Notes under the pieces: model-generated
Databases searched by the model: none
Told to the model about the DNA's origin: nothing
What the model saw: the letters and a program-made list of their open reading frames with translations, nothing else
Shown: positions 26,233 through 52,280 of the stretch, in pieces
Layout: each line of letters opens with the position of its first letter
Numbering within the stretch: position 1 is the first letter of the stretch
Position numbers and translations under genes: made by a program
Origin: Minisyncoccota bacterium
Lineage (GTDB): Bacteria; Patescibacteriota; Minisyncoccia; Phycocordibacterales; JABAAK01
Length of the DNA stretch: 64,000 nt
Direction: 5' to 3'
Assembly (NCBI GenBank): GCA_958295675.1
Contig: OY282360.1
Coordinates: forward strand, 358,394-422,393

Positions 26233-26239
26233 ATATTCG

Positions 26240-27623: not shown

Positions 27624-27646
27624 CCTCAAACACTATGTGTTTGGGG
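27624..27646. terminator. bidirectional hairpin terminator element, copy 2
   Basis: cctcaaacac-tat-gtgtttgggg. Confidence 0.5.
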
Positions 27647-27682
27647 CTTTATTGTTCTGGAACGAGAGTTGCGCACTCTCTT

Positions 27683-28234: not shown

Positions 28235-28338
28235 CTCTTTCCTCGGTTTTCAGTTGGTTTAGTCAACTACGATGAGAGAAAAACTCTCATCACCAAAATA
28301 TAGTATAGCACATTAAACTATATTTTCAAAAAAATAAA

Positions 28339-28364
28339 CCCCTGAACACATAAGTGTTTTGGGG
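28339..28364. terminator. bidirectional hairpin terminator element, copy 3
   Basis: cccctgaacac-ataa-gtgttttgggg. Confidence 0.5.
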
Positions 28365-28382
28365 TTTAAGTGGTTCACGGAT

Positions 28383-29432
28383 TTACGCAAGCGAATCCGA
28401 TCGTCTGTTCCTGAGATGCAGCAGAGCAATGTGGCGCACAAACTCATTCTCATCTTTGACAAGTTTTTCGAGTACTTCAATCGGTGTGTTCGGATGTTGA
28501 GCGACAAGAGATCTGATCAGCAAATCCGCATTGCCGGCAAACAATGTAAGTTGTTCTGCCGGTGTATTCGGGTTACAAATGGCAGAACGCAATACCAATT
28601 CATCTGTATCTTTGAGAAGGAATGTCAGAGATTCTAGTGGAATGTTCTCGTTTTCAGCAAGCAGTTTTCGCACAAACCAACTTTTATCTACAGAAAGTAA
28701 TGCGAATGCTCTCGTCAAAGTAATCTTACTTCTAGCTATTTCTGCCCGCACATCCTCATCAGGATCTGTAGCAAAACCTGTGAGTGCTTTTATTAACCGT
28801 TTCTTTCTCTTGGCAAGAGTCAACCGCACAGAATCAGCCTTATCCTTGGCGAGTCGCATGAATACTGGGATCGGCAGCTTCTTTCTCTTGGCAAGAGTAA
28901 ACCGTACATGGACATCTTCGTCTTCAGTGAGACGCATGAGTATTTGGATTGGCAGCTTCTTTCTCTTGGCAAGAATACACCGTACATACCAATCCTCATC
29001 CTCAGCAAGTCGCATGAGTACTTGGATCGGCAGCTTCTTTTTCTCGGCAAGAATACGCCGTACATGTACATACCAATCCCCACTCTCAGCAAGTCGCATG
29101 AGTACTTGGATCGGCAGCTTCTTTCTCTCGGCAAGAATACACCGTACATACCAATCCTCATCCTCAGCAAGTCGCATGAGTACTTGGATCGGCAGCTTCT
29201 TTCTCTTGAGAATAGCACGCTGTACATAAAAATTCTCATCCTCAGCAAGTCGCATGAGTACTTCTTCCGGCAGATCCTCTCTCTCGGCAACAATATACCG
29301 TACATGCCAATTCTCATCCTCAGCAAGTCGAGCAAGTGTTTCTTGCGAAGATGTTATTTTGGCAAGAATATATCGCGGAAGAGTAGTAAGTATACCCAGA
29401 ACCCACAAACAGATTTCTTGGAATACATTCAT
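28383..29432 (-). CDS. LRV-repeat protein with N-terminal hydrophobic segment
   Basis: 349 aa. Seven or more LPIQVLMRLAEDEDWYVRCILAERKK repeats (26 aa). Confidence 0.6.
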   Translation of the reverse strand: MNVFQEICLWVLGILTTLPRYILAKITSSQETLARLAEDENWHVRYIVAEREDLPEEVLMRLAEDENFYVQRAILKRKKLPIQVLMRLAEDEDWYVRCILAERKKLPIQVLMRLAESGDWYVHVRRILAEKKKLPIQVLMRLAEDEDWYVRCILAKRKKLPIQILMRLTEDEDVHVRFTLAKRKKLPIPVFMRLAKDKADSVRLTLAKRKKRLIKALTGFATDPDEDVRAEIARSKITLTRAFALLSVDKSWFVRKLLAENENIPLESLTFLLKDTDELVLRSAICNPNTPAEQLTLFAGNADLLIRSLVAQHPNTPIEVLEKLVKDENEFVRHIALLHLRNRRSDSLA

Positions 29433-29641
29433 CCGAGTACCTCCTTCTTCGGTTCCTTTAGGATCAAAGACCCATCCTGATTCATAGTATTATATTTTAA
29501 GTGTATTGTCAATAAATAACTGAATATACTGATAGTATATTTTGTTTACAAATGGCAGAACGCAACACCACTTCAATGATCCAATTTCACTTGCCAATCT
29601 TCATCCTTCACAATGGTGTAATATATTTTCTAAAAAATGAA

Positions 29642-29664
29642 CCCCGAACATATAGTGTTCGGGG
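29642..29664. terminator. bidirectional hairpin terminator element, copy 4
   Basis: ccccgaaca-tata-gtgttcgggg. Confidence 0.5.
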
Positions 29665-29733
29665 TTTAGCGGAAACGCCGGTGAGTTCAGGTACGAATCA
29701 GGGTTTGCCTTTTATCAAGCAAGAACTGCACTT

Positions 29734-32103
29734 TTAGGAAACCGTCTGTCTTTTGAGATTCTCAACAGCCGTCTCTCGCACCCACGGATTCTTATCCTCC
29801 GCAAGCTTGGCAAGAACTTCTTTCGGTGTGTTCCGATGCTTGGCAACAGCCAACCGAATCCGCCAATACGCATCCTCAGCAAGTCGCACGAGTACTTCTA
29901 TGAGAACTTCCCTCGGTGTGTTCCGATGTTTGGTAACACTAAACCGCACCCACGCATTCTCATCCTCGGCAAGCTTGGTGAGAGCTTCTTTCGGTGTGTT
30001 CCGATGTTTGGTAACACTCAACCGCACCCACGCATTCTCATCCTCAGCAAGCTTGGTAAGAGCTTCTTTCGGTGTGTTCGGATGCTCGGCAACTTCCTGC
30101 CGCACCCACGCATTCTCATCCTCGGCAAGCTTGGTGAGAACTTCTTTCGGTGTGTTCCGCTGCTTAGCAACTTCCCGCCGCACCCACGGATTCTTATCCT
30201 CGGCAAGCATTTTAAGCACTTCCAAAGGTGTGTTTGGATTCATGGCGACACCTATTCGCACACCTGCATTCTCATCCTCGGCAAGCTTGGCAAGAATTTC
30301 TTTCGGTGTGTTCCGATGCTTAGCAACTTCCTGCCGCACCAACACATTTTCATCCTCAGCAAGTCGCATGAGTGCTTCTTCCGGTAAGTCCTTCCTCTTG
30401 GCAAGAGTCAACCGCACATCCAGATTTTTATTATCAGTAAGATGAATGAGATCTTCTTTCGGTGTGTCCCGATGTTTAGCAAAAGCCAACCAAACCCGCC
30501 AATTCTTATCCTCAGTAAGTCGCACGAGTGCTTCTTCCGGCAAGTCCTTCCTCTTGATAAGAGTAAGCTGCACATCCAGATTCTTATCCTCGGCAAGCTT
30601 GGTGAGAGCTTCTTTCGGTGTGTTCGGATGCTCGGCAACTTCCCGCCGAACCCGCCAATCCTTATCCTCAGCAAGTCGCACGAGTACTTCTTCCGGCAAG
30701 TCCTTCCTCTTGGGAAGAGTAAGCTGCACATCCAGATTCTTATCCTCGGCAAGTTTGATGAGAGCTTCTTTCGGTGTGTTCCGATGCTTAGCAACTTCCT
30801 GCCGCACCAACGCATTCTCATCCTCGGCAAGCTTGGTGAGAACTTCTTTTGATGCTTTCTTATACTTGGCAACAGCAAACCGAACCCGCCAATTCTTATC
30901 CTCAGCAAGTCGCACGAGTACTTCTTCCGGCAAGTCCTTCCTCTTGGGAAGAGTCAACCGCACATCCAGATTCTTATCCTCGGCAAGTTTGATGAGAGCT
31001 TCTTTCGGTGTGTTCCGATGATTAGCAACTTCCTGCCGCACCAACGCATTCTCATCCTCGGCAAGCTTGGTGAGAGCTTCTTTCGGTGTGTTCCGATGCT
31101 TGGCAACAGCCAACTGAATCCGCCAATCCTTATCCTCAGCAAGTCGCATGAGTGCTTCTTCCGGCAAGTCCTTCCTCTCGGTAAGAGTCAACCGCACATC
31201 CAGATTTTTATTACCAGTAAGATGAACGAGAGATTCTTTCGGTGTGTTCCGATGCTTGGCAACAGCCAACCGAACCCGCCAATTCTTATCCTTAGCAAGT
31301 CGCATGAGTGCTTCTTCCAGTAAGTCCTTCCTCCTGGTAAGAGCAAGCCGCACATCCAGATTTTTATCATCAGTAAAATGAACGAGAACTTTTCTCGGTG
31401 TGTTCCGATGCTTAGCAACTTCCTGCCGAACCCGCCAATCCTTATCCTCAGCAAGTCGCACGAGTACTTCTTCCGGCAAGTCCTTCCTCTTGGCAAGAGT
31501 CAACCGCACATTCTGTTTCTTATCCCCGGCAAGTTTGATGAGAGCTTCTTTCGGTGTGTTCGGATGCTCGGCAACTTCCCGCCGCCGCAGCCAATCCTTA
31601 TCTCCGGCAAGTTGCATGAGTACTTCTCTGAGAATTTCCCTCGGTGTGTTTCGATGTTTGGTAACACTCAACCGCACCCACGAATCCTTATCCCCGGCAA
31701 GTTTGATGAGAACTTCTCTCGGCGTGTTCCGATTCTTGGCAACTTCCCGCCGCACGGACCGATTCTTATCCTCGGCAAGTTTGATGAGAATTTCTCTCGG
31801 TGTGTTCCGATGCTCGGCAACAACCGACCGAACCGACCAATTCTCATCCTCAGCAAGTTTGATGAGAACTTCTTTTGGTGCGTTCCTATGCCTGGCAATT
31901 CTATCTCGCACAAACCAAAACGCATCTTCAGCAAGTCGCACGAGTACTTCTTCCGGCAGATCCTTTCTCTCGGCAAGAGTCAACCGCACCAGAAAATCCT
32001 TATCCCCGGCAAGTCGCATGAGTTTTTCATGAGATGTACAAGGGTCCTTGGCGGCTTTCAATCGTGCCACCACATTTCTCTTTCTCCTGCTCTTTCTACT
32101 CAT
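29734..32103 (-). CDS. giant LRV-repeat protein (~27 repeats)
   Basis: 789 aa of LAEDKNWRVRQEVAKHRNTPKEALIK-type 26-aa units. K/R-rich N-terminus. Confidence 0.65.
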   Translation of the reverse strand: MSRKSRRKRNVVARLKAAKDPCTSHEKLMRLAGDKDFLVRLTLAERKDLPEEVLVRLAEDAFWFVRDRIARHRNAPKEVLIKLAEDENWSVRSVVAEHRNTPREILIKLAEDKNRSVRREVAKNRNTPREVLIKLAGDKDSWVRLSVTKHRNTPREILREVLMQLAGDKDWLRRREVAEHPNTPKEALIKLAGDKKQNVRLTLAKRKDLPEEVLVRLAEDKDWRVRQEVAKHRNTPRKVLVHFTDDKNLDVRLALTRRKDLLEEALMRLAKDKNWRVRLAVAKHRNTPKESLVHLTGNKNLDVRLTLTERKDLPEEALMRLAEDKDWRIQLAVAKHRNTPKEALTKLAEDENALVRQEVANHRNTPKEALIKLAEDKNLDVRLTLPKRKDLPEEVLVRLAEDKNWRVRFAVAKYKKASKEVLTKLAEDENALVRQEVAKHRNTPKEALIKLAEDKNLDVQLTLPKRKDLPEEVLVRLAEDKDWRVRREVAEHPNTPKEALTKLAEDKNLDVQLTLIKRKDLPEEALVRLTEDKNWRVWLAFAKHRDTPKEDLIHLTDNKNLDVRLTLAKRKDLPEEALMRLAEDENVLVRQEVAKHRNTPKEILAKLAEDENAGVRIGVAMNPNTPLEVLKMLAEDKNPWVRREVAKQRNTPKEVLTKLAEDENAWVRQEVAEHPNTPKEALTKLAEDENAWVRLSVTKHRNTPKEALTKLAEDENAWVRFSVTKHRNTPREVLIEVLVRLAEDAYWRIRLAVAKHRNTPKEVLAKLAEDKNPWVRETAVENLKRQTVS

Positions 32104-32246
32104 GTATAATCCTCCCTTGGTTCAGTTTCTTCAGATAAGAGGCATTCTCTCATCACCGAGAATAGTATACTATGTTTTCTAAAAAAATAAACCTTAAAAA
32201 GATTATATAAAAAAATTCCACCAGCATTTCTACTAGTGGAGTGAGT

Positions 32247-32963
32247 TTAGAGCACTTCCGTAAAGAACCGTCTTTCAAACCAAGAAAGGATAGCCTGCAC
32301 CACTTGATCTCGTTCCAATGTACCGTCCAGGAATGCTTTTACAACTTTTATGAAAGCCAGAAACCAGAAATCCATTTCTACATCTTCGTTGGAAAGTAGG
32401 TCAGATGCTCCAATCTCTAGTTCTTGGACACTTGAGTAGACAGCTTGCCACGAATCTTTTGCATCTTCTTCAAATGTTTTAAGCATGGCAAGCCGTGCTT
32501 TGGTAAAATTCACTTCAAACTCAAGAAACATCACTCTAAGAGTAGAGGCAGAAATGCTCCTTTCTTTTTCGTAGTATTTTACAATTTCAAGAAGAAGTAT
32601 TAGTTCCTTCGGTATGTTTGAGTTTCTGTAGAGAAATTCAAGCACAATGGAGGACACCTTTTTCTCGTCTTTGGCAAGTTGCATCAGAATTTCAAAAGAT
32701 GCTTTTGGATTCTTGCCGACATTTCTTCGCACATACCAGTGCGTGTCTCCAGCGAGTTGCGTAAGAGATTTCACCGGCATGCTTGGGTGCTCAGCGGCAG
32801 CTGCCCGCACCCGCCAATCCTTGTCTCTGGCAAGCCGTACGAGAGATGCTACTGGTGTATCCGGATTCCTGGCTGCACGGCGTTGCACACGCCAATCATC
32901 GTCTTTTGCATACGCAATGAGCATTTTTTCCGGAACAGGTTCTCGCCGCGCAAAAACAAGCAT
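32247..32963 (-). CDS. LRV-repeat protein with unique C-terminal domain
   Basis: 238 aa: four LRV units then about 130 aa of non-repeat helical sequence. Confidence 0.6.
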   Translation of the reverse strand: MLVFARREPVPEKMLIAYAKDDDWRVQRRAARNPDTPVASLVRLARDKDWRVRAAAAEHPSMPVKSLTQLAGDTHWYVRRNVGKNPKASFEILMQLAKDEKKVSSIVLEFLYRNSNIPKELILLLEIVKYYEKERSISASTLRVMFLEFEVNFTKARLAMLKTFEEDAKDSWQAVYSSVQELEIGASDLLSNEDVEMDFWFLAFIKVVKAFLDGTLERDQVVQAILSWFERRFFTEVL

Positions 32964-33040
32964 TCAATACCTCCTTTTAGGTTTGTTTAGCATGAGACAA
33001 AATCTCCAAAGTAAGTATACCACTTTAGGATACATTTTTC

Positions 33041-33063
33041 AAAAAACAAACCCCAAACACATA
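33041..33063. terminator. bidirectional hairpin terminator element, copy 5
   Basis: ccccaaacac-ata-gtgtttgagg. Confidence 0.45.
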
Positions 33064-33083
33064 GTGTTTGAGGTTCTGATGAC

Positions 33084-33618
33084 TCAGGAAGAAGTCGATG
33101 ATGTATTCAGTTCTGCTCGTGCAGTAAGTCCTGTCCGCACAACCAAATTCTCATCCTCAGCAAGCAGCGTGGCTACCTCAGTCGGCAAAGTCATTTCTCC
33201 TGGCAAGAGCGGACCGTACCCGCCGATCCTTATCCTTAGCAAGCCGCATGGCTGCCTCAGTCGGCAAGTCATCTCTCCTGGCAAGAGCGGACCGTACCCG
33301 CCGATTCTTATCCTCAGCAAGCCACATGGCTACATTAGCCGGCAGGTCATCTCTCATGGCAAGAGAACGCCGAACAGACGCTTTTGCATCCTCAGCAAGC
33401 CGCATGGCTACTTCAGCAGGCAACTGCTTTCTCTTAGTAAGAAGAAGCCGTACACGCACCCCTCCATTCTCTGCAAGACGAACAAGTCTTTTTGATGAAG
33501 ATGATCTTACGGCAAGAATCTGCCACACAAGATCAAGCATCATTTTTCGGAACACATGCATGACCCAAATACCTCCTTTTAGGTTTGTTTGGAATGAGAG
33601 AAAACCTCTAAATAACAA
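33084..33618 (-). pseudogene. LRV-repeat gene split by a frameshift
   Basis: ORF 33178..33618 (LRV units) and ORF 33084..33320 (continuing ...LPTEVATLLAEDENLVVR) are in different frames. Confidence 0.45.
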
Positions 33619-34978: not shown

Positions 34979-36004
34979 TCAGCGGGCAAGCAATGTCTGT
35001 CTGTGAAAATTAAGATGCTCGGTCTGAATACTTTTACCGATACCGCGGATAACAGCGTGCTCGGGATGATCAGCAACTTGTACCGGTGCGTTTATATGTT
35101 TCTCAACCGCGCGATCAAGACCGTTAAGATTTGCTACGCCACCGGTCAAAATGACACCTTTTTCAAGTATGTCAGAAGTGAGTTCCGGTCGCGTTCCCTG
35201 GAATACGCTCGCGATAGTATCTAATATTTTTCTGACTTCTTCCTGTATTGCTTCAGCAACATCATTTGAATTAATATGTATAATACGCGGAAGATTATTG
35301 TTCATGTCACTTCCCTTTACCTTGATTCCTTTCGGAGTATCTGATACAGCCACTGTGCCTATTTTTTCTTTTACCTGTCTGGCGACATTTTCACTGATGA
35401 GTAAGTGGTAACGCTGTTGAATATGCCGGACAATTGATGTGTCCATATCATTGCCTCCCACTCTTTCAGAACGATAACTGCTCATACCGCCAAGGGAAAT
35501 AACCGCGGTTTCAGTTAATCCCGCACCGATATCCGTCACCATTCTGCCGCGCAATTCATCGCGGTGCATACCGACCCCGAATGCCGCAAGGATAGCATTC
35601 TGTTCGGTGAACACAGAACGCGCACCTGTTCGCTTACATGTTTGGATGGCAGCGCGCTGCTCCATACTGGTCGCACCGGTCGGTACACTGATGAGAATAT
35701 CGCTCCGAAAGAATCGCAGTATACCTTGCGCCTGTCGGATAGCGCTGTGTAAATATTTTTCGGCTATATGTTCATCCTGAATCGCACCGCGGGAAACGGT
35801 TGTATGGATATTAATATGATTCGGCGCGCGACCGACCATTTCTTCCGCGCATTCTCCGACACAAATAAGACGTTTTTTGCCGTCGCCTTCAAAGGCCAAT
35901 TTGCTTGGTTCGTCAAAGATAACGCCGCGGTATGGGATATAGATACGGGTCTGTGATGTACCCAAATCTATTCCAACATTACGGGAAAACGAAAAAAAAG
36001 ACAT
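34979..36004 (-). CDS. second MreB/Mbl-like actin homologue
   Basis: VGIDLGTSQT, DIGAGLTETAVISLGG, Hsp70/actin-fold phosphate motifs. Confidence 0.7.
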   Translation of the reverse strand: MSFFSFSRNVGIDLGTSQTRIYIPYRGVIFDEPSKLAFEGDGKKRLICVGECAEEMVGRAPNHINIHTTVSRGAIQDEHIAEKYLHSAIRQAQGILRFFRSDILISVPTGATSMEQRAAIQTCKRTGARSVFTEQNAILAAFGVGMHRDELRGRMVTDIGAGLTETAVISLGGMSSYRSERVGGNDMDTSIVRHIQQRYHLLISENVARQVKEKIGTVAVSDTPKGIKVKGSDMNNNLPRIIHINSNDVAEAIQEEVRKILDTIASVFQGTRPELTSDILEKGVILTGGVANLNGLDRAVEKHINAPVQVADHPEHAVIRGIGKSIQTEHLNFHRQTLLAR

Positions 36005-36673: not shown

Positions 36674-36745
36674 TCACTATATTCCGCGGTAGCTCAGCGG
36701 TAGAGCAACCGGCTGTTAACCGGTAGGTCGCAGGTTCGAATCCCG
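36674..36745 (+). tRNA. tRNA-Asn (anticodon GUU)
   Basis: Acceptor tccgcgg/ccgcgga, anticodon loop cuGUUaa, T-loop ttcgaat. Confidence 0.8.
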
Positions 36746-36851
36746 CCCGCGGAGCAATAACACAGATTTCACATTTTTTCAAAAAATGGTATATTATTTG
36801 TTAGAAAGGTTTCCTTTTCTGTTCATTTCAAACACACCAAAAGGAGGTTTT

Positions 36852-37139
36852 ATGAACCTACACCCACCACCGAAAATGGTTGGAATGCTGATACCACAAA
36901 ACCGTATGCTTCGGCTTTGGGAGAAGTTGAAGCAGTGTGCTGTGACGACCTTTCATCTCATCACACTCCGTAGGTGGATGCGGCCCGACGTTTACGTTGC
37001 TCGCAACTACAGCATACCACCGGAAGTGCTTGCACAACTGGCAAGGGATCCGGATGCGGTTACTCGGCAGATAGTTGCTCACCGCACCGTACCACCAGAA
37101 GTCCTTGCAAGATTGACGGACGATAAGGTTTCTCCCTGA
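36852..37139 (+). CDS. short LRV-type protein carrying the shared N-terminal module (MLRLWEKLKQ...ITLRR)
   Basis: ATG after AAGGAGG. Two IPPEVLAQLARDPDAVTRQIVAHRTVPPEVL units. Ends ...LTDDKVSP. Confidence 0.55.
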   Translation: MNLHPPPKMVGMLIPQNRMLRLWEKLKQCAVTTFHLITLRRWMRPDVYVARNYSIPPEVLAQLARDPDAVTRQIVAHRTVPPEVLARLTDDKVSP

Positions 37140-37149
37140 GTCGTCAGAA

Positions 37150-37172
37150 CCCCAAACACACAGTGTTTGGGG
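37150..37172. terminator. bidirectional hairpin terminator element, copy 6
   Basis: ccccaaacac-aca-gtgtttgggg plus T-tract. Confidence 0.55.
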
Positions 37173-37276
37173 TTTATTTTTTAAATAACTTAAAAATTAT
37201 AGTTAAAAGATGTATACTTGGGTGGGAGAAAATCCCTAACCACCCCTAACCGAGTCGAAATGAAGGAGGTCCGATA

Positions 37277-37777
37277 ATGGGCATAGCCCTGCTAGAAAAT
37301 TTGTTGCAGAAGCAAGTTTTCAAAGAAATAGACTCAAACGCAACATCAGTTGAAGTGCTTGCATCATTGGTGTCACTGACATTAGATGAGTTCATTGCGA
37401 CCAGAGACCCGAACACATCGAAAAAGACGCTTGCACGACTTGCAAACAGTGACAATCTGCTCGTTCAGATACTTGTTGCCAAACATCCGAACACATCACC
37501 AGAAACTCTCAAGCAGTTTGTTGAGATGGTGAAACAGGGCAAACAGTTTGGAACTGAAATTCAGTTTCTTCTGCAAATACCTCTCATCCAAAATCAAAAT
37601 ACGCCTTCGGAAGCACTCGCGTTTTTTGCCGAGAGTGAGAACGAGGATGTACGGTGTGCCGTTGCCAGAAATCCGAACACACCGCCGGAAGTTCTCCTCA
37701 AACTTAAGGAGGATAGGAGTTTACTCGTGCAGCAGTATGCCGAAGAGAACCCAAACACACCGTTGACTTCTCCCTGA
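37277..37777 (+). CDS. LRV-repeat protein
   Basis: 166 aa. GAAGGAGG RBS. ...DVRCAVARNPNTPPEVLLKL.... Confidence 0.65.
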   Translation: MGIALLENLLQKQVFKEIDSNATSVEVLASLVSLTLDEFIATRDPNTSKKTLARLANSDNLLVQILVAKHPNTSPETLKQFVEMVKQGKQFGTEIQFLLQIPLIQNQNTPSEALAFFAESENEDVRCAVARNPNTPPEVLLKLKEDRSLLVQQYAEENPNTPLTSP

Positions 37778-37786
37778 GTCGTCAGA

Positions 37787-37809
37787 ACCCCAAACACACA
37801 GTGTTCGGG
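37787..37809. terminator. bidirectional hairpin terminator element, copy 7
   Basis: ccccaaacacacagtgttcgggg. Confidence 0.55.
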
Positions 37810-37827
37810 GTTTATTTTTTAAATAAC

Positions 37828-37855
37828 TTGAAAATTATAGTTTAAATGGTATCTT
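37828..37855 (+). promoter_or_regulatory. cassette promoter TTGAAA / 16 nt / TGgTATCTT (representative; repeated before each family-A gene)
   Basis: Same sequence near 38160, 39090, 40100, 42780 and 43980. Confidence 0.4.
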
Positions 37856-37862
37856 GTTTGTT

Positions 37863-37880
37863 AGAAAGGTTTCCCTTTCT
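37863..37880 (+). promoter_or_regulatory. conserved 5'-UTR stem-loop agaaagg-tttc-cctttct (representative)
   Basis: Present in every family-A leader and in the leader of 36852..37139. Confidence 0.4.
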
Positions 37881-37913
37881 GTTCGTTTCAAACACACCAA
37901 AAGGAGGTGTTTT

Positions 37914-38090
37914 GTGAATCAAAAGATGTACCGGATCCGTGAGAAGATACAGCACACTGATGATGATTTAGATCTCAGCAACCTCACCTCCGCGAAAGGA
38001 CTCACCTTGCCGAGGAAGATTGGTGGTGATCTGGTTCTCAGCGGTCTCAGAATACCACCGGAAGAAGTCTTTAAGTCCTTGCAAGATTGA
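37914..38090 (+). CDS. family-A mini-gene (single 22-aa repeat)
   Basis: GTG after AGGAGG. VNQKMYRIREKIQHTDDDLDLSNLTSAKGLTLPRKIGGDLVLSGLRIPPEEVFKSLQD. Confidence 0.45.
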   Translation: MNQKMYRIREKIQHTDDDLDLSNLTSAKGLTLPRKIGGDLVLSGLRIPPEEVFKSLQD

Positions 38091-38123
38091 TGGACGATAA
38101 GGTTTCTCCCTGAGTCGTCAGAA

Positions 38124-38146
38124 CCCCAAACATATAGTGTTTGGGG
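38124..38146. terminator. bidirectional hairpin terminator element, copy 8
   Basis: ccccaaacatatagtgtttgggg. Confidence 0.5.
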
Positions 38147-38251
38147 TTTGTTTTTAAACAATTTGAAAACATAGTTAAAAAAAATGGTATATTATTTGTT
38201 GGAAAGATTCCCCTTTCTGTTTATTTCAAACACACCAAAAGGAGGTGTTTT

Positions 38252-38968
38252 GTGGATCCACACATGTCTCGGCTCCGTAGGAATATACAGCACGTTGATG
38301 ATAATTTAGATCTCAGCAATCTCACCTCCGCGAAAGGACTCACGCTACCTGAAGAGATTGTTGGTGATCTGAATCTCAGCGGTCTTGTCTCCGCTGAGGG
38401 ACTCACCCTGCCGAGGAAGATTGGTGGTGATCTGCGGCTCAACGGTCTCACCTCCGCTGAAGGACTCACGCTACCTGAAGAGATTGGTGGTCATCTGGAT
38501 CTCAGAGATCTCACCTCCGCGAAAGGACTCACGCTACCTGAAGAGATTGGTGGCAGTCTGGTTCTCAGCGGTCTCACCTCCGCTGAGGGACTCACCCTGC
38601 CGAGGAAAATTGGTGGTGGTCTGTTTCTCAGCGGTCTCAAGTCCGCGAAAGGACTCACGCTACCTGAAGAGATTGGTGGTGATCTGTGGCTCATCGGTCT
38701 CACCTCCGCGAAAGGACTCACGCTACCTGAAGAGATTAGTGGCAGTCTGTGGCTCGACAATCTCACCTCCGCGAAAGGACTCACGCTACCTGAAGAGATT
38801 AGTGGCAGTCTGTGGCTCGACAATCTCACCTCCGCGAAAGGACTCACCCTGCCGAGGAAAATTGGTGGCATTTTGTTTCTCAGCGGACTCACCTCCGCTG
38901 AGGGACTTACACTCCCTGAAGAGATTGGTGGTTATCTGTGGATCGGAGGAAGGAAGGTACAGCATTAG
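38252..38968 (+). CDS. family-A 22-aa tandem-repeat protein (about 10 repeats)
   Basis: GTG after AGGAGG. VDPHMSRLRRNIQHVDDNLDLSNL then LTSAKGLTLPEEIGGxLxLxGL units. Confidence 0.65.
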   Translation: MDPHMSRLRRNIQHVDDNLDLSNLTSAKGLTLPEEIVGDLNLSGLVSAEGLTLPRKIGGDLRLNGLTSAEGLTLPEEIGGHLDLRDLTSAKGLTLPEEIGGSLVLSGLTSAEGLTLPRKIGGGLFLSGLKSAKGLTLPEEIGGDLWLIGLTSAKGLTLPEEISGSLWLDNLTSAKGLTLPEEISGSLWLDNLTSAKGLTLPRKIGGILFLSGLTSAEGLTLPEEIGGYLWIGGRKVQH

Positions 38969-39042
38969 TGTTGCTATAAGCAACCCACCACCGGAAGTCC
39001 TTGCAACATTGATGGACGATAAGGTTTCTCCCTGAATCGTCA

Positions 39043-39065
39043 GAACCCCGAACATTATGTGTTCG
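39043..39065. terminator. bidirectional hairpin terminator element, copy 9
   Basis: ccccgaacattatgtgttcgggg. Confidence 0.5.
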
Positions 39066-39171
39066 GGGTTTATTTTTTAAATAACTTGAAAATTATAGTT
39101 TAAATGGTATCTTGTTTGTTAGAAAGGTTTCCCTTTCTGTTCGTTTCAAACACACCAAAAGGAGGTGTTTT

Positions 39172-40095
39172 GTGAATCAAACTGGCTCCGTGATGCAACA
39201 CACTGATGATTTAGATCTCAGCAACCTCACCTCCGCGAAAGGACTTACACTCCCTGAAGAGATTACTGGCACTCTGGATCTCAGCGGTCTCACCTCCGCT
39301 GAGGAACTCACGCTACCTGAAGAGATTGGTGGTAATCTGGATCTCAGAGGTCTCACCTCCGCTGAGGGACTCACCCTGCCGAGGAAGATTGGTGGTGCTC
39401 TGTTGCTCGACGGTCTCACCTCCGCGAAAGGACTCACGCTACCTGAAGAGATTGGTGGTGATCTGTGGCTCATCGGTCTCACCTCCGCGAAAGGACTCAC
39501 GCTACCTGAAGAGATTGGTGGTCATCTGGTTCTCAACGGTCTCACCTCCGCGAAAGGACTCACCCTGCCGAGGAAAATTGGTGGCATTTTGTTTCTCATC
39601 GGTCTCACTTTCGCTGAAGAACTCACCCTGCCGAGGAAGATTAGCGGTAGTCTGTATCTCAACGGTCTCACCTCCGCTAAGGGACTTACGCTACCTGAAG
39701 AGATTGGTGGTCATCTGATTCTCAGCGGTCTCACTTCCGCGAAAGGACTCACCCTACCGAGGAAGATTGGTGGTGCTCTGGTTCTCAGCGGTCTCACCTC
39801 CACTGAAGGACTCACCCTGCCGAAGAAGATTGGTGGTGATCTGGATCTCAACGGTCTCAAGTCCGCTGAAGAACTCACACTACCTGAAGAGATTGGTGGC
39901 AGTCTGTTTCTCGACGGTCTCAGTTCCGCTGAGGGACTCACGCTACCTGAAGAGATTGGTGGCATTCTGGTTCTCAACGGTCTCACCTCCACGAAAGGAC
40001 TCACCCTGCCGAGGAAGATTGGTGGTCATCTGGATCTCAGAGGTCAGAACCCCGAACATTATGTGTTCGGGGTTTATTTTTTTAAACAACTTTAA
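39172..40095 (+). CDS. family-A 22-aa tandem-repeat protein (about 13 repeats); 3' tail deleted, ORF reads through the terminator hairpin
   Basis: GTG after AGGAGG. The repeat is fused directly to tcagaaccccgaaca...; ends FGVYFFKQL. Confidence 0.55.
   Translation: MNQTGSVMQHTDDLDLSNLTSAKGLTLPEEITGTLDLSGLTSAEELTLPEEIGGNLDLRGLTSAEGLTLPRKIGGALLLDGLTSAKGLTLPEEIGGDLWLIGLTSAKGLTLPEEIGGHLVLNGLTSAKGLTLPRKIGGILFLIGLTFAEELTLPRKISGSLYLNGLTSAKGLTLPEEIGGHLILSGLTSAKGLTLPRKIGGALVLSGLTSTEGLTLPKKIGGDLDLNGLKSAEELTLPEEIGGSLFLDGLSSAEGLTLPEEIGGILVLNGLTSTKGLTLPRKIGGHLDLRGQNPEHYVFGVYFFKQL
40047..40069. terminator. bidirectional hairpin terminator element, copy 10
   Basis: ccccgaacattatgtgttcgggg. Confidence 0.5.
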
Positions 40096-40179
40096 AATTA
40101 TAGTTAAAAATGGTACCTTGTTTGGTAGGAAAGGATTTCCCTTTCTGTTCATTTCAAACACACCAAAAGGAGGTGTTTT

Positions 40180-42579
40180 GTGAATCAAAAGATGTACCGG
40201 ATCCGTGAGAAGATACAGCACACTGATGATGATGATTTAGATCTCAGCAATCTCACCTCCGCGAAAGGACTCACTCTGCCGAGGAAGATTGGTGGCAGTC
40301 TGTTTCTCAGAGGTCTCACCTCCGCGAAAGAACTCACGCTACCTGAAGAGATTGGTGGTGATCTGTGGCTCGACGGTCTCACCTCCGCGAAAGGACTCAC
40401 GCTACCGAAAGAAATCGGCGGTGTTCTGAATCTCAACGGACTCACCTCCGCTGAAGGATTCACGCTACCTGAAGAGATTGGTGGTGGTCTGTGGCTCAAC
40501 GGTTTCGATCCCGCGAAAGGATTCACCCTGCCGAGGAAGATTGGTGGTGATCTGCGGCTCGACGGTCTCACCTCCGCGAAAGGACTCACGCTACCTGAAG
40601 AGATTGGTGGTCTGTTTCTCAGAGGTCTCACCTCCGCAAAAGGACTCACACTACCTGAAGAGATTGGTGGTGATCTGGATCTCACCGGTCTCACTTCCGC
40701 GAAAGGACTCACTCTGCCGAGGAAGATTGGTGGTGATCTGTGGCTCAACAGACTCACTTCCACGAAAGGACTCACGCTACCTGAAGAGATTGGTATTGGT
40801 GGTGATCTGCGGCTCGACGGTCTCACCTCCGCGAAAGGACTCACCCTGCCGAGGAAGATTGGTGGTCTGGATCTCAGCGGTCTCACTTCCGCGAAAGGAC
40901 TCACGCTACCTGAAGAGATTGGTGATGATCTGTTGCTCGACAATCTCACTTCCGCGAAAGGACTCACGCTACCTGAAGAGATTGGTGGCAGTCTGGTTCT
41001 CAGAGGTCTTACCTCCGAGAAAGGACTCACCCTGCCGAGGAAGATTGGTGGCAGTCTGTTTCTCAGAGGTCTCGCCTCCGCGAAAGAACTCACGCTACCT
41101 GAAGAGATTGGTGGTGATCTGGATCTCAGCGGTCTCACTTTCGCGAAAGAACTCACCCTGCCGAGGAAGATTGGTGGTGAACTGGATCTTAGCGGTCTCA
41201 CCTCCGCGAAAGAACTCACGCTACCTGAAGAGATTGATATTGGTGGTCATCTGGATCTCAGAGGTCTCACCTCCGCTGAAGAACTCACCCTGCCGAGGAA
41301 GATTGGTGGTCATTTGCGGCTCGACGATCTCAAGTCCGCTGAGGGACTTACACTCCCTGAAGAGATTGGTGGTGATCTGCGGCTCGACGGTCTCACCTCC
41401 GCAAAAGGACTCACGCTACCTGAAGAGATTGGTGGTCGTCTGGATTTCAGCGGTCTCACTTCCGCTGAAGAACTCACGCTACCTGAAGAGATTGCTGGTG
41501 ATCTGGTTCTCAGAGGTCTCACCTCCGCGAAAGGACTCACGCTACCTGAAGAGATTGGTGGTGATCTGGTTCTCATCGGTCTCACCTCCACGAAAGGACT
41601 CACCTTGCCGAGGAAGATTGGTGGTGATCTGGTTCTCAGAGGTCTCACCTCCGCGAAAGGACTCACGCTACCTGAAGAGATTGGTGGTGATCTGGATATC
41701 AGCGGTCTCACCTCCGCGAAAGGACTCACGCTACCTGAAGAGATTGGTGGTGATCTGGTTCTCATCGGTCTCACCTCCGCTGAAGAACTCACACTACCTG
41801 AAGAGATTGGTGGTAGTCTACATCTCAGCGGTCTTACCTCCGCGAAAGGACTCACCCTGCCGAGGAAGATTGGTGGTGGTCTGTATCTCATCGGTCTCAC
41901 CTCCGCGAAAGGACTCACCCTGCCGAGGAAGATTGGTGATCATCTGTGGCTCGACGGTCTCACCTCCGCGAAAAAACTCACGCTACCTGAAGAGATTGGT
42001 GGTCTGTTTCTCAGCGGTCTCACTTCCGCTAAAGAGATAAGTGGCAGTCTGTATCTCAACGGACTCACTTCAGCGGAAGGACTCATCCTACCGAGGAAGA
42101 TTGGTGGTCATCTGGTTCTCAGCGGTCTCACCTCCGCTGAAGAACTCACACTACCTGAAGAGATTGGTGGTGATTTGGATCTCAGCGGTCTCACCTCCGC
42201 GAAAGGACTCATACTACCGGAAGAGATTGGTGGTGATTTGATTCTCAGCGGTCTCACTTCCGCGAAAGGACTCACGCTACCTAAAGAGATTGGTGGTCAT
42301 CTGGATCTCAGCGGTCTCACCTCCACGAAAGGACTCACCTTAGCGAGGAAGATTGGTGGTGAACTGGATCTTAGCGGTCTCACCTCCGCGAAAGAACTCA
42401 CGCTACCTGAAGAGATTGATATTGGTGGTCATCTGGATCTCAGAGGTCTCACCTCCGCGAAAGGACTCACTCTGCCGAGGAAGATTGGTGGTGATCTGCT
42501 TCTCAGCGGTTATTATCCCATGCTTCTTTCTTTTTCTCTTCATTCTCAGCATCTATTTCCTCCTGCCGAGGAAAATTAG
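40180..42579 (+). CDS. family-A giant 22-aa tandem-repeat protein (about 35 repeats), interrupted near the 3' end
   Basis: 799 aa in frame 1. A non-repeat ~52-nt segment at about 42512-42565 replaces 24 nt of one repeat, causing a +1 shift. The repeat frame resumes and ends at 42706 (...LKSLQD). Confidence 0.55.
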   Translation: MNQKMYRIREKIQHTDDDDLDLSNLTSAKGLTLPRKIGGSLFLRGLTSAKELTLPEEIGGDLWLDGLTSAKGLTLPKEIGGVLNLNGLTSAEGFTLPEEIGGGLWLNGFDPAKGFTLPRKIGGDLRLDGLTSAKGLTLPEEIGGLFLRGLTSAKGLTLPEEIGGDLDLTGLTSAKGLTLPRKIGGDLWLNRLTSTKGLTLPEEIGIGGDLRLDGLTSAKGLTLPRKIGGLDLSGLTSAKGLTLPEEIGDDLLLDNLTSAKGLTLPEEIGGSLVLRGLTSEKGLTLPRKIGGSLFLRGLASAKELTLPEEIGGDLDLSGLTFAKELTLPRKIGGELDLSGLTSAKELTLPEEIDIGGHLDLRGLTSAEELTLPRKIGGHLRLDDLKSAEGLTLPEEIGGDLRLDGLTSAKGLTLPEEIGGRLDFSGLTSAEELTLPEEIAGDLVLRGLTSAKGLTLPEEIGGDLVLIGLTSTKGLTLPRKIGGDLVLRGLTSAKGLTLPEEIGGDLDISGLTSAKGLTLPEEIGGDLVLIGLTSAEELTLPEEIGGSLHLSGLTSAKGLTLPRKIGGGLYLIGLTSAKGLTLPRKIGDHLWLDGLTSAKKLTLPEEIGGLFLSGLTSAKEISGSLYLNGLTSAEGLILPRKIGGHLVLSGLTSAEELTLPEEIGGDLDLSGLTSAKGLILPEEIGGDLILSGLTSAKGLTLPKEIGGHLDLSGLTSTKGLTLARKIGGELDLSGLTSAKELTLPEEIDIGGHLDLRGLTSAKGLTLPRKIGGDLLLSGYYPMLLSFSLHSQHLFPPAEEN

Positions 42580-42739
42580 TGGTAGTCTGTTTCTCAGCGG
42601 TCTCACTTCCGCGAAAGGACTCACCCTACCTGAAGAGATTGGTGGTGATTTGGTTCTCAGCGGTCTCACCATACCACCGGAAATCCTTAAGTCCTTGCAA
42701 GATTGATGGACGATAAGGTTTCTCCCTGAGTCGTCAGAA

Positions 42740-42762
42740 CTCCGAACACATAGTGTTCGGGG
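42740..42762. terminator. bidirectional hairpin terminator element, copy 11
   Basis: ctccgaacacatagtgttcgggg. Confidence 0.5.
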
Positions 42763-42863
42763 TTTATTTTTAAATAACTTGAAAATATAGTTAAAAAATA
42801 GTACATTGTTTGTTAGAAGGGTTTCCCTTTTTGTTCACTTCAAACACACCAAAAGGAGATTTT

Positions 42864-43904
42864 ATGAATGTGGGGACACCACCAACAAAACTTACAGCGG
42901 AAGTGATTGCAGGGTGGGGGGCACCAGACAACTGGATGCTCCGGCTTTGGAAGAAGTTGAAGCAGCGTGCTGTGATCTTTTGTCTCATCACACTCCGTAG
43001 GGAGATGCAGTACATTGATGGCGATATGGATCTCAGCGGTCTCACCTCCGCTGAGGGACTCACCCTGCCGAGGAAGATTGGTGGTTGTCTGGATCTCAGC
43101 GGTCTCACCTCCGCTGAGGGACTCACCCTGCCGGAGGAAATCGGTGATTGGCTGGATCTCAGAGGTCTCACCTCCGCTGAGGGACTCACCCTGCCGGAGG
43201 AAATCGGTAATTGGCTGGATCTCAGCGGTCTCACCTCCGCTGAGGGACTCACGCTACCGAAAGAGATTACTGGCAATCTGTTTCTCAGCGGTCTCACCTC
43301 CGCGAAAGGACTCACCCTGCCGAGGAAGATTGGTGGCGGTCTGGATCTCAGCGGTCTCACCTCCGCTGAGGGACTCACCCTGCCGAGGAAAATTGGTGGT
43401 GGTCTGTTTCTCAGCGGTCTCACCTCCGCGAAAGGACTCACCCTGCCGAGGAAGATTGGTGGTTTTCTGTGGTTCAGCGGTCTCACCTCCGCTGAGGGAA
43501 TCACCTGGCCGGAAGAGATTGGTGGTGATCTGGATCTCAGCGGTCTCACTTCCGCGAAAGGACTCACGCTACCGAAAGAGATTACTGGCAATCTGTTTCT
43601 CAGCGGTCTCACTTCCGCGAAAGGACTCACGCTACCGAAAGAGATTACTGGCAATCTGTTTCTCAGCGGTCTCACTTCCGCGAAAGGACTCACGCTACCT
43701 GAAGAGGTTGGTGGTGATCTGGATCTCAGAGGTCTCACTTCCGCTGAAGAACTCACACTACCTGAAGAGATTGGTGGCGATCTGGTTCTCAACGGTCTCA
43801 CCTCCGCGAAAGGACTTACGCTACCGAGGAAGATTGGTGGTGATCTGGTTCTCAGCGGTCTCAGAATACCACCGGAAGAAGTCTTTAAGTCCTTGCAAGA
43901 TTGA
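42864..43904 (+). CDS. family-A 22-aa tandem-repeat protein with LRV-type N-terminal module (MNVGTPP...MLRLWKKLKQRAV...ITLRR)
   Basis: ATG after AAAGGAG. N-terminal 55 aa are homologous to 36852..37139, then about 13 of the 22-aa repeats. Confidence 0.65.
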   Translation: MNVGTPPTKLTAEVIAGWGAPDNWMLRLWKKLKQRAVIFCLITLRREMQYIDGDMDLSGLTSAEGLTLPRKIGGCLDLSGLTSAEGLTLPEEIGDWLDLRGLTSAEGLTLPEEIGNWLDLSGLTSAEGLTLPKEITGNLFLSGLTSAKGLTLPRKIGGGLDLSGLTSAEGLTLPRKIGGGLFLSGLTSAKGLTLPRKIGGFLWFSGLTSAEGITWPEEIGGDLDLSGLTSAKGLTLPKEITGNLFLSGLTSAKGLTLPKEITGNLFLSGLTSAKGLTLPEEVGGDLDLRGLTSAEELTLPEEIGGDLVLNGLTSAKGLTLPRKIGGDLVLSGLRIPPEEVFKSLQD

Positions 43905-43937
43905 TGGACGATAAGGTTTCTCCCTGAGTCGTCAGAA

Positions 43938-43960
43938 CCCCAAACATATAGTGTTTGGGG
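43938..43960. terminator. bidirectional hairpin terminator element, copy 12
   Basis: ccccaaacatatagtgtttgggg. Confidence 0.5.
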
Positions 43961-44065
43961 TTTGTTTTTAAACAATTTGAAAACATAGTTAAAAAAAATG
44001 GTATATTATTTGTTGGAAAGATTCCCCTTTCTGTTTATTTCAAACACACCAAAAGGAGGTGTTTT

Positions 44066-45265
44066 GTGGATCCACACATGTCTCGGCTCCGTAGGAATAT
44101 ACAGCACGTTGATGATAATTTAGATCTCAGCAATCTCACCTCCGCGAAAGGACTCACGCTACCTGAAGAGATTGTTGGTGATCTGAATCTCAGCGGTCTT
44201 GTCTCCGCTGAGGGACTCACCCTGCCGAGGAAGATTGGTGGTGATCTGCGGCTCAACGGTCTCACCTCCGCTGAAGGACTCACGCTACCTGAAGAGATTG
44301 GCGGTGATCTGAATCTCATCGGTCTCACCTCCGCTGAAGGACTTACGCTACCTGAAGAGATTGGTGGTGGTCTGAATTTCAGCAATCTCACCTCCGCTGA
44401 GGGACTCACCCTGCCAAGGAAGATTGGTAGTCATCTGCGGCTCGACGATCTCAAGTCCGCTGAGGGACTTACACTCCCTGAAGAGATTGGTAGTGATCTG
44501 CTTCTCAGCAGACTCACCTCCGCGAAAGGACTCACCCTGCCGAGGAAGATTGGCCGTAATCTGTGGCTCAACGGTCTCACTTCCGCTGAGGGACTCACGC
44601 TACCTGAAGAGATTGGTGGTCATCTGGTTCTGAGCGGTCTCACTTCCGCGAAAGAACTCATCCTGCCGAGGAAGATTGGTGGTAAACTGGATCTCAGCGG
44701 TCTCACTTCCGCTGAAGAACTCACGCTACCTGAAGAGATTGGTGGTGATCTGTTGCTCAACGGTCTCACCTCCGCTGAGGGACTCACCCTGCCAAGGAAG
44801 ATTGGTGGTTCTCTGTGGCTCAACGGTCTTACCTCTGCGAAAGAACTCACCCTGCCGAGGAAGATTGGTGGTGGTCTGTATCTCCGCGATCTCACCTCTA
44901 CTGAAGGACTCACGCTACCTGAAGAGATTGGTAGCAGTTTGTTTCTCAGCGGTCTCACCTCCGCTGAAGAACTCACGCTACCTGAAGAGATTGGTGGTGC
45001 TCTGGATCTCAGCGGTCTCACCTCCGCGAAAGGACTCACCCTGCCGAGGAAGATTGGTGGTGATCTGCGGCTCAGCGGACTCACCTCCGCGAAAGGACTC
45101 ACGCTACCTGAAGAGATTGGCCGTGATCTGTGGCTCAGAGGTCTCACCTCCACTGAAGGACTCACGCTACCTGAAGAGATTGGCCGTAATCTGGTTCTCA
45201 GCAGTTTCACCTCCGCGAAAGGACTCACCCTGCCGAGGAAGAGAGGAAGATTGGTGGTTTTCTGA
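44066..45265 (+). CDS. family-A 22-aa tandem-repeat protein (about 17 repeats)
   Basis: GTG after AGGAGG. The first ~350 nt (from the terminator through the start) are near-identical to the 38126-38420 region. Confidence 0.65.
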   Translation: MDPHMSRLRRNIQHVDDNLDLSNLTSAKGLTLPEEIVGDLNLSGLVSAEGLTLPRKIGGDLRLNGLTSAEGLTLPEEIGGDLNLIGLTSAEGLTLPEEIGGGLNFSNLTSAEGLTLPRKIGSHLRLDDLKSAEGLTLPEEIGSDLLLSRLTSAKGLTLPRKIGRNLWLNGLTSAEGLTLPEEIGGHLVLSGLTSAKELILPRKIGGKLDLSGLTSAEELTLPEEIGGDLLLNGLTSAEGLTLPRKIGGSLWLNGLTSAKELTLPRKIGGGLYLRDLTSTEGLTLPEEIGSSLFLSGLTSAEELTLPEEIGGALDLSGLTSAKGLTLPRKIGGDLRLSGLTSAKGLTLPEEIGRDLWLRGLTSTEGLTLPEEIGRNLVLSSFTSAKGLTLPRKRGRLVVF

Positions 45266-45407: not shown

Positions 45408-46244
45408 TTATTTTTGTATAGTCACAGATGTAGAATCTATGACTTTTTTGAGAATGGATTCTGTTTCAATAGGATCAGAAACCGACACAGCATCAATCCC
45501 GGATTCCAATACTATATAATCATTACCTTCTTCTTGCATCTGATCACCAAAGAAAAGCATGTTTGAAACAGAAATCCCGAGTATCTCTCCTATCGTTCGC
45601 ACACCATCTGCTTTATTAGAACGAGTAATGTCAACTGATGTTGAACCGCCTATTCGCACCTGCATATCCGGCAGACGGGTTTGGAGTGCTTTCTGTAACT
45701 GAGGTCTGATATCCTGTGTTTCATTCCACTGTTTTTTTAATTCCAGAGGTGCCTGTTGTCCGAGCGCGGAAAAAGTAATTTGTGTTCCCCGATCCTCCAC
45801 CACTTCACCGTATGTTTTCTCCGGCGGAGTGTACCCAATCTCATCCAATGACTGTTGTATAGATTCGATTATTATTTGTTTCTCTTCACTACTAAATGGT
45901 TCTATTTGGTATATAGACATCCACTGTCTTTCGTCAGTACGGGTATATACTGATCCGCCGGAAACAGGAGCAATTAAAAGTTTTTTTGTGAGATTGATAT
46001 CCACACCTGCAATAATTTGTTCCGCGCATTGTGTTCTTAATTGGTCGTAACCGCCTCCGCCCAGTAGTGCGACATGGTATGTTTCTAAAAGTGTCCGCAG
46101 TGTCCCTGCCATACTGTCAGTGATATCCGCCTTGCTTTCCGTCAGCGTGCCATCCACATCAAAGATAAAAACATGCTTTTCAACGATATTTCGTTTTTCC
46201 TGTACAATATCAGCACCTTTTTTATTCAGTACGGGAACAAGCAT
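45408..46244 (-). CDS. HAD-IIB hydrolase, eukaryotic-type phosphomannomutase-like
   Basis: FDVDGTLT motif I. GGSTSVDITRSNKADGV resembles the PMM GGQISFDVFPxGWDK. Confidence 0.5.
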   Translation of the reverse strand: MLVPVLNKKGADIVQEKRNIVEKHVFIFDVDGTLTESKADITDSMAGTLRTLLETYHVALLGGGGYDQLRTQCAEQIIAGVDINLTKKLLIAPVSGGSVYTRTDERQWMSIYQIEPFSSEEKQIIIESIQQSLDEIGYTPPEKTYGEVVEDRGTQITFSALGQQAPLELKKQWNETQDIRPQLQKALQTRLPDMQVRIGGSTSVDITRSNKADGVRTIGEILGISVSNMLFFGDQMQEEGNDYIVLESGIDAVSVSDPIETESILKKVIDSTSVTIQK

Positions 46245-52190: not shown

Positions 52191-52280
52191 GCTGACGGTA
52201 GTGTACCCCATATATCAAATGCCGTACTCTTTCTTGTGTGAAGATGTTTTTTAGTTTTAATTGTATTCCATTTCATTATT

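Follow-up and report, generated by a model that had tools for sequence, protein, structure and literature searches.

A Tandem Array of Repeat Genes beside tRNA-Asn

We analyzed a 64,000-nucleotide (nt) stretch of contig OY282360.1 from a Minisyncoccota bacterium (the window), and in particular the cluster interval that extends from a tRNA-Asn gene to a phosphomannomutase-like gene (table 1). This interval holds an array of repeat genes that starts ~30 nt 3′ of the tRNA and comprises eight transcription units, all on the forward strand: two genes for leucine-rich repeat variant (LRV) proteins, LRV1 and LRV2, and six genes (c1–c6) whose bodies are built from a different repeat. Both LRV1 (38.4 bits) and LRV2 (50.8 bits) pass the cut-off of Pfam family PF01816 (LRV; 21.6 bits). 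The repeat of c1–c6, read as 22 amino acids (aa) in an earlier note on this DNA, has a measured period of 63 nt and hence 21 aa (consensus GLTLPEEIGGDLDLSGLTSAK). No Pfam family matches it, and no leucine-rich repeat profile passes for the c-genes or for their relatives elsewhere in the window, for which the profiles return spurious multi-repeat matches with 0 significant stretches; on the homologue P0001, the LRR_14 profile reaches 18 bits, its cut-off being 40. An AlphaFold2 model of the c5 product folds as a beta-solenoid, with a predicted local distance difference test score (pLDDT) of ~90 across the repeats, an unstructured N-terminal module (pLDDT <50) and a short C-terminal helix of the capping type. 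The best match to this model in the PDB is YopM, followed by the leucine-rich repeats of SspH1 and IpaH; the match to YopM has a probability of 0.98 but is weak by its E-value (0.079) and TM-score (0.43).

The relatives of this repeat within the window are seven genes at 51.5–62.6 kb (51588..62564), which we call the standard genes and which differ from c1–c6 at both ends. Their products have a ~140-aa N-domain (beginning MADICEEL...) and a C-cap (...ITNWPxKIGG...EKRYPGQV), and the genes have a TATACT motif ~11 nt before the ATG, without a Shine–Dalgarno (SD) site and without a hairpin terminator. Because TATACT lies so close to the ATG and an SD site is absent, the standard genes look leaderless, unlike the LRV-type units described below. 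The repeat units of the cluster genes and of the standard genes intermingle.

The Ends of c1–c6 Are of LRV Type

The N-terminus of LRV1, which is followed by LRV units, and that of c5, which is followed by 21-aa repeats, were proposed in the earlier note to be homologous, and this is borne out by a pairwise alignment of 45 aa with 56% identity (E 7e-11); at the DNA level, 99 of 121 aligned positions match (82%). A six-frame tblastn search found no third copy of this N-module in the window, a word-index search found no homologues, and HMMER, run exhaustively against 1.84 billion representatives, returned only LRV1 itself and one spurious tandem-repeat open reading frame (ORF). Aligned to c5, the N-modules of c1–c4 and c6 are short by one ~100-nt internal deletion with a common right border, which argues for a single ancestry of the short N-termini.

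The units also have in common a set of conserved expression signals, which extends the list of boxes given in the earlier note to a 20-nt ribosome-binding-site (RBS) box in seven copies, a terminator box in eight and the promoter-like sites. Each of the seven boxed units (LRV1 and c1–c6) has a promoter-like −35/extended −10 site, a leader of 55–59 nt with a 5′ hairpin, the RBS box TTCAAACACACCAAAAGGAG (exact in 7/7 copies), a start codon (ATG or GTG) whose distance from the SD site is constant, and a terminator. LRV2 has a leader of its own and holds its stop context (ttctccctgagtcgtcagaacc) and terminator in common with the cluster. An Rfam scan matched only tRNAs and no known leader motif, and searches of genome and metagenome collections for the exact 20-nt RBS box yielded nothing beyond single chance matches in unrelated organisms.

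The terminator links these signals to the LRV genes. Of the 13 copies of the hairpin CCCCRAACAC...GTGTTYGGGG in the window, eight are in the cluster and five follow minus-strand LRV genes (26.9–33.1 kb), so that it accompanies LRV and cluster genes only. The minus-strand LRV genes also have the arrangement of the cluster, in which a terminator is followed by TTGAAA, TATAxT, a hairpin leader and AAAGGAGG, and the leaders of those at 33.0 and 33.6 kb are partly alignable. Since this terminator and layout are specific to LRV genes and both ends of the standard 21-aa-repeat genes are of another kind, the boxes appear to be LRV-family expression signals, and c1–c6 appear to be 21-aa-repeat bodies in LRV shells. 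The minus-strand array itself (26912..33560) comprises six LRV genes; its period is 78 nt, its largest gene encodes 789 aa, and it has conserved terminator–promoter blocks. The gene at 33084..33560 is frameshifted near 33190.

The 3′ ends of the c-genes carry a second LRV-derived part. The tail sequence GACGATAAGGTTTCTCCCTGA is present in six copies at ≤1 mismatch where 0 are expected, and on the c-genes it matches the 3′ end of LRV1 at 44 of 48 positions. The peptide that it encodes, PPEVLARLTDDKVSP, fits the unit consensus of the LRV genes in the window, P(P/E)EVLxxLxxDK, which identifies the tail as LRV-derived. This peptide is in frame in LRV1, lies past the stop and in another frame in c2, lies partly past the stop in c1, c4 and c5, and is present only as a fragment in c6. 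The proposal of the earlier note that the DNA downstream of these genes encodes the LRV C-terminus even past the stop codon thus holds for c1, c2, c4 and c5; it fails for c3, which has no tail, and c6 retains only the ...RLTDDKVSS part.

The way in which each tail has left its frame differs. In c2, the repeat body meets the LRV remnant out of frame, and a whole LRV unit is kept in an untranslated remnant (38969..39035) that reads ...VAISNPPPEVLATLMDDKVSP and stop in another frame. In c3, the tail is deleted and the repeat is fused straight to the terminator at a GTC microhomology, such that the ORF crosses the hairpin. The 3′ remnant of c4 (42562..42706, forward strand) continues in a shifted frame for two repeats and ...LSGLTIPPEILKSLQD with its stop, and c6 contains an 8-nt tandem duplication (45235..45250) that produces a premature stop and without which the gene would end ...RLTDDKVSS at 45321. 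Removal of an 8-nt insert from c4, or of an 11-nt insert from c1 and c5, restores the ending ...IPPEVLARLMDDKVSP and its stop. Because the LRV C-terminus and stop return once these small inserts and the duplication are removed, the founding chimera was probably in frame with the LRV C-terminus. Translation of the tail by read-through or under another genetic code was set aside, because LRV1 and LRV2 have the same TGA directly ahead of the terminator and housekeeping ORFs are intact under translation table 11. The tail and stop region (37119..37146 and its equivalents) also contains a possible small hairpin, GACGAU...AUCGUC, just before the terminator, the stem of which is extended in c2 by a G-to-A change; this hairpin may be the reason why the tail stays conserved.

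A Proposed Founding Fusion between Two Repeat Families

At the 5′ junction between LRV shell and repeat body, LRV1, c5 and c2/c6 have ...ctc cgt agg (Leu-Arg-Arg) in common, after which the sequence of LRV1 is its own and that of c5 and c2 reads (E/N)(M/I)Q(Y/H). This is the motif that precedes the repeats of the standard genes, NIQ(Y/H) (SGNIQYHY in gene 61713), and distant homologues have ALSGNIxYHYG ahead of their repeats. At the 3′ junction of c1, c4 and c5, the body passes in mid-repeat from ...LSGL to ata cca ccg gaa (IPPE), which is in the LRV frame. The founding junctions thus lie after ctccgtagg and before ataccaccggaa and, as the 21-aa-repeat family that served as donor has neither box, they fall outside shared homology.

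Judged from sequence, c1–c6 are probably chimeras in which a body of the 21-aa-repeat family was placed inside an LRV expression shell that was then amplified in tandem. The exchange of modules between LRV and repeat genes that the earlier note had proposed stands, since c1–c6 combine LRV-type 5′ and 3′ parts with the body of a foreign family; it is real as a historical gene fusion. Starting from an array of LRV genes, the founding event would have replaced the LRV repeats of an LRV1-like gene with a tract copied from the 21-aa, leucine-rich-repeat-like solenoid family, running from the NIQ(Y/H) pre-repeat motif to a point in mid-repeat. The promoter, 5′ hairpin leader, strong SD site, N-module up to ...LRR, C-terminus IPPEVLARLxDDKVSP with its stop, and terminator would all have been kept from the LRV gene. 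Amplification would have proceeded by unequal crossing-over and gene conversion, the ordinary homologous recombination that is evident in the recent tracts described below, with the 63-nt repeats as the main substrates and the ~190-nt intergenic blocks as additional ones, and at least one further transfer would have involved a distant member of the family (c4 and gene 54161). The edges of the fusion would since have decayed, with ~100 nt of the N-module lost in five of the six c-genes and the LRV tail, on at least four independent occasions, either deleted or shifted out of its frame. The resulting array would consist of eight tandem paralogues, each transcribed on its own, whose products are predicted to be solenoids with 1 to ~37 repeats that stay in the cytoplasm or are exported by an unconventional route, and the shared 5′ and 3′ boxes would be working expression signals retained by descent, not dedicated recombination sites.

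Table 1. Positions of the principal features in the window (strand as on the analyzed stretch; cells are empty where no entry applies).
Feature	Position	Strand	Description
tRNA-Asn(GTT)	36683..36755	+	Found by ARAGORN and Rfam
LRV1 promoter-like site and leader	36768..36851	+	TTCACA-16-TGgTATATT; 55-nt leader with 5′ hairpin and RBS box TTCAAACACACCAAAAGGAG
LRV1	36852..37139	+	95 aa; N-module 36852..36984, two LRV units, end ...VPPEVLARLTDDKVSP and stop; Pfam LRV 1.2e-9
Intrinsic terminator	37147..37175	+	13-bp stem; first of 8 in the cluster
LRV2	37277..37777	+	166 aa; Pfam LRV 1.3e-13
c1	37914..38090	+	Minimal gene, 58 aa, ~1 repeat; mosaic
c2	38252..38968	+	238 aa, GTG start
c3	39172..40095	+	307 aa
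c4	40180..42579	+	799 aa, ~37 repeats; frame-shifted remnant extends to 42706
Unique insert in c4	42511..42561	+	51 nt in place of 23 nt of a repeat, with a change of frame; located where the gene-54161 tract ends
c5	42864..43904	+	346 aa; full N-module 42864..43003, 13 repeats, end ...LSGLRIPPEEVFKSLQD and stop
c6	44066..45265	+	399 aa
Other cluster terminators	Starts at ~37785, 38121, 39043, 40047, 42737, 43935, 45329	+	
Promoter spacers with A-run	36768..36800, 37828..37855, 38165..38200, 40080..40115, 42779..42807, 43979..44014		
Exact duplicate, 478 nt	38010..38487 and 43824..44301	+	Extends from the last repeat through tail, terminator, promoter and leader into the following gene, of which it covers the first 3.5 repeats
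Phosphomannomutase-like gene	45408..46244		Convergent to the array; other border of the interval
Hairpins matching the cluster terminators, after five LRV genes	26853, 27624, 28340, 29642, 33051	−	
Standard family member	54161..55666	−	N-domain, repeats and C-cap; repeat tract 54356..55167 nearest to the 3′ body of c4

Recent Recombination within the Array

Against a background identity of ~85% between copies, the cluster contains exact blocks of 478, 123 and 82 nt. From 38010 onward c1 is identical to the end of c5 (the start of the 478-nt duplicate), whereas its 5′ region shares the 123-nt block, which lies inside the intergenic block, with that of c3; the 82-nt block is common to the heads of c1 and c4 and ends in the first repeat. 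The flanks of single genes are consequently discordant: c1 resembles c3 at its 5′ side and c5 at its 3′ side, and c2 resembles c6 at its 5′ side although the terminators of the two are just 81.6% identical. Concerted evolution is marked by tandem paralogues on one strand that have long identical tracts in common yet differ in kinship between their 5′ and 3′ sides, and this pattern is found here.

A further exchange connects the cluster with the standard genes. The last 800 nt of repeats in c4 (41711..42510) are 88.4% collinear with the repeats of gene 54161, the first five units matching at 56–63 of 63 positions; for anything else, including the other c-genes, the value is ≤82.5%. This tract ends at the 51-nt insert of c4, which encodes a hydrophobic stretch in the shifted frame (AVIIPCFFLFLFILSIYFLL) and may be a junction scar; no source for it was found in the window. 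As a separate observation, the N-domains of gene 54161..55666 and of the neighboring standard gene 53371..54093 contain a 437-nt exact duplicate (53584..54020 and 55127..55563), which is a further recent conversion or duplication.

The ends of the 478-nt and 800-nt tracts lie inside repeats. Tract ends within repeats or intergenic blocks fit unequal crossing-over and gene conversion and not the swapping of bodies via flanking boxes. The latter mechanism, which the earlier note had read from the shared 5′ and 3′ homology, finds no support: the donor family lacks the boxes, and most tract ends are inside the 63-nt repeats. Nor do the boxes stand out from the sequence around them, as their similarity between LRV1 and c5 (82–92%) is no higher than that of the N-module; descent by tandem duplication is therefore sufficient to explain it.

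Weighing the Alternatives

Several points weigh against the fusion and amplification that we propose. The direction of transfer, from the 21-aa-repeat family into the LRV shell, is itself inferred from sequence comparison. The N-module has no homologue beyond LRV1 and c5 in the searches described above. Conservation of the untranslated tail equals or exceeds that of the leader (0–2 differences in 38 nt). Neutral descent alone does not require this; the tail may have a role in the small hairpin ahead of the terminator or may have been homogenized by conversion. Finally, the repeat is open in several frames and, for this reason, the long ORFs are weak evidence.

This last point bears on the possibility that the chimeras are a decaying by-product, that is, non-functional leftovers of accidental recombination that appear conserved only through their recent origin. 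The 3′ ends are damaged in five of the six c-genes (by a junction that is out of frame, loss of the tail with read-through, the 51-nt insert and the 8-nt duplication), c1 has been reduced to about one repeat, and the long ORFs prove little. Additionally, a public protein collection holds exact proteins for LRV1, LRV2, c1, MreB and genes 60708 and 61713 on one matching contig of 724,510 bp, to which the source DNA is identical or almost identical, and is without c2–c6 and the long standard genes 59145, 54161 and 52281; the absence of c2–c6 beside LRV1, LRV2 and c1 would suit this explanation, although the gap may stem from pseudogene flags or from the repeats having been assembled differently. 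Leftovers would not, however, be expected to preserve an RBS box that is exact in all seven copies with start codons at a fixed distance from the SD site, or bodies of up to 799 aa without a stop in the coding frame, and the new tail is still modeled as a capping helix. The ratio of synonymous to non-synonymous change in the c-genes is 1.18 in the annotated frame versus 0.31 and 0.19 in the other frames, a frame-specific synonymous excess that equals that of the standard genes (1.12). Coding constraint is thus visible in the c-genes, and much of the variation may predate capture. We consider decay unlikely.

An active cassette or contingency system, in which the boxes are recombination handles for the swapping of repeat bodies and thereby generate programmed protein variation, would account for conserved flanks around variable bodies, for mosaic structure with very recent exchanges, and for the 123-nt exact block shared by the 5′ regions of c1 and c3 within an intergenic block. 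The occurrence of the same family in tandem arrays with conserved ends in another genome of the Candidate Phyla Radiation (CPR; see below) also favors it, as does a run of adenines in the promoter spacer, which is A3, A5, A6 or A8 in different paralogues and sets the −35/−10 spacing to 16–19 nt. Such a run could allow switching and is a lead drawn from the differences between paralogues alone. Against this system, the larger tracts (478 and 800 nt) end in repeats and not in boxes, and the donor family has no boxes at all. A silent-cassette locus would have one expressed copy and promoterless donors, whereas here every unit has a promoter-like site, an SD site and a terminator, so none is silent; a shufflon or invertible locus would have a recombinase and inverted copies, whereas all units have one orientation. 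A Pfam scan of ~40 ORFs in the window detected no recombinase, integrase, invertase, transposase or reverse transcriptase; only RecR, RmuC and RadC appeared. No signal peptide or lipobox is visible in the cluster products, and the 82% identity of the LRV1 and c5 N-modules indicates that the exchange between LRV and 21-aa-repeat genes is old and not ongoing. A cassette system of this kind is, in our judgment, highly improbable.

We see an equally slim prospect for a broader version, in which the cluster is the working diversification locus of a CPR episymbiont: LRV high-expression shells would display leucine-rich-repeat-like solenoids of variable length, the dispersed standard genes would donate repeats by conversion, as in the case of c4 and gene 54161, and the A-run would tune or switch individual units. 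If true, the bacterium would possess a repertoire of binding proteins assembled from repeat cassettes.

An assembly artefact, whereby repeat-induced misjoins in a metagenome-assembled genome created the mosaics and exact duplicates, might be expected from a region of 63-nt repeats with identical blocks of up to 478 nt whose long repeat genes have no entries among the public proteins of the matching contig, yet it is scarcely credible given that the key observations concern diverged copies (82–92%) with distinct indels, beyond what misassembly can create, and that c1, the most mosaic gene, has an identical 58-aa protein on the public contig (which may be the same assembly).

In sum, the gene fusion is real, tandem duplication and ordinary recombination came after it, and a cassette-switching system is not demonstrated.

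The 21-aa-Repeat Family and Comparable Systems

The 21-aa-repeat family has >1,200 homologues at E ≤0.001. All source names among the matches listed are "hypothetical protein", and the named matches are all from Patescibacteria, namely Shapirobacteria, Falkowbacteria, Paceibacterota and Campbellbacteria. Most homologues are ~800–850 aa long (such as P0001, P0028, P0087, P0010 and P0060) and have a conserved ~440-aa N-domain without a Pfam match, in which the motifs YPxWFKYY, GTGWCTAG, GGDFYVYY and PRIAIRMEG mark an uncharacterized domain that is widespread in the CPR. When full-length c5 was used as the query, all matches were confined to the repeat region and no chimera was found elsewhere, so that within the range of the searches the LRV shell is confined to this genome. 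A literature search found nothing on LRV or 21-aa-repeat arrays in the CPR.

A second tandem array of the family is present in Candidatus Campbellbacteria (CP064977.1; L005, 9221..20113), where 11 genes with 5–13 repeats each have near-identical ~130-aa N-domains and C-ends and lie 3 nt apart. It resembles the cluster in its repeat family, its tandem paralogues and its conserved end modules, and because of it, arrays with conserved ends and variable bodies can be regarded as a trait of the family. It differs in being operon-like and in having the family's own N-domain and C-end, with no LRV-derived parts seen.

The nearest precedents for the cluster are the chimeric internalins of Listeria and the Vlp and Vsp systems of Mycoplasma, with the distinction that body and shell come from unrelated repeat classes here. 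The vlp genes of Mycoplasma hyorhinis and the vsp genes of Mycoplasma bovis form clusters in which the 5′ non-coding region and the N-terminus are highly conserved and the bodies consist of in-frame tandem repeats, which gain and lose units; Vlp genes have a homopolymeric A-tract in the promoter spacer. The products of both are lipoproteins that carry a signal peptide and a lipobox, and switching of Vsp depends on a site-specific recombinase and inversions. The cluster is similar in its conserved 5′ region and N-terminus, its repeat bodies and the A-run in its spacer; signal peptide, lipobox, recombinase and inversions are not found in it, and its A-run varies between paralogues only. The pilE/pilS system of Neisseria and the vlsE/vls system of Borrelia have one expression site and promoterless donors, from which conversion moves variable segments. 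The cluster shares conversion between copies with conserved flanks and differs in that each unit has its own promoter-like site, SD site and terminator. In Listeria, inlH is a chimera of the 5′ part of inlC2 and the 3′ part of inlD (PMC3977354). As in the cluster, internalin genes are tandem, same-strand genes for solenoids of the leucine-rich repeat type in which recombination between neighbors gives rise to chimeras and repeat number varies among paralogues. Internalin chimeras, however, join members of one family, whereas the body in the cluster (a beta-solenoid) is from another repeat class than its flanks (an LRV shell of the alpha type), and internalins have signal peptides and wall anchors, of which the cluster proteins show none.

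The locus provides a base-by-base view of how a repeat family gains a new body while the promoter, leader, N-terminus, C-terminus and terminator of another family are kept, and it also documents the spread and erosion of the resulting hybrid. It reveals no new mechanism of recombination; what it adds is module shuffling and concerted evolution in an uncharacterized CPR repeat family. This large family, without a Pfam match and with tandem, conserved-end arrays in at least two genomes, is on these grounds a reasonable candidate for proteins that interact with a host or partner, in organisms whose surface biology is poorly known.

Genomic Surroundings

The array is embedded among core genes, which include cell-wall and division genes of the dcw cluster, DnaB, CysS, MreB and RRF. 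A tRNA-linked genomic island was rejected as a description of the interval, there being no integrase and no repeated tRNA end; no second copy of the 3′ end of tRNA-Asn is present in the window at ≤3 mismatches. Two MreB paralogues are encoded in the window (25081..26499 and 34979..36004), one of them with a 140-aa N-extension. Two tandem genes without a Pfam match (10001..10873 and 11063..11938) have exact blocks of 70–80 nt in common, and an 89-nt exact inverted repeat (52209..52297 versus 63912..64000) runs to the end of the window.

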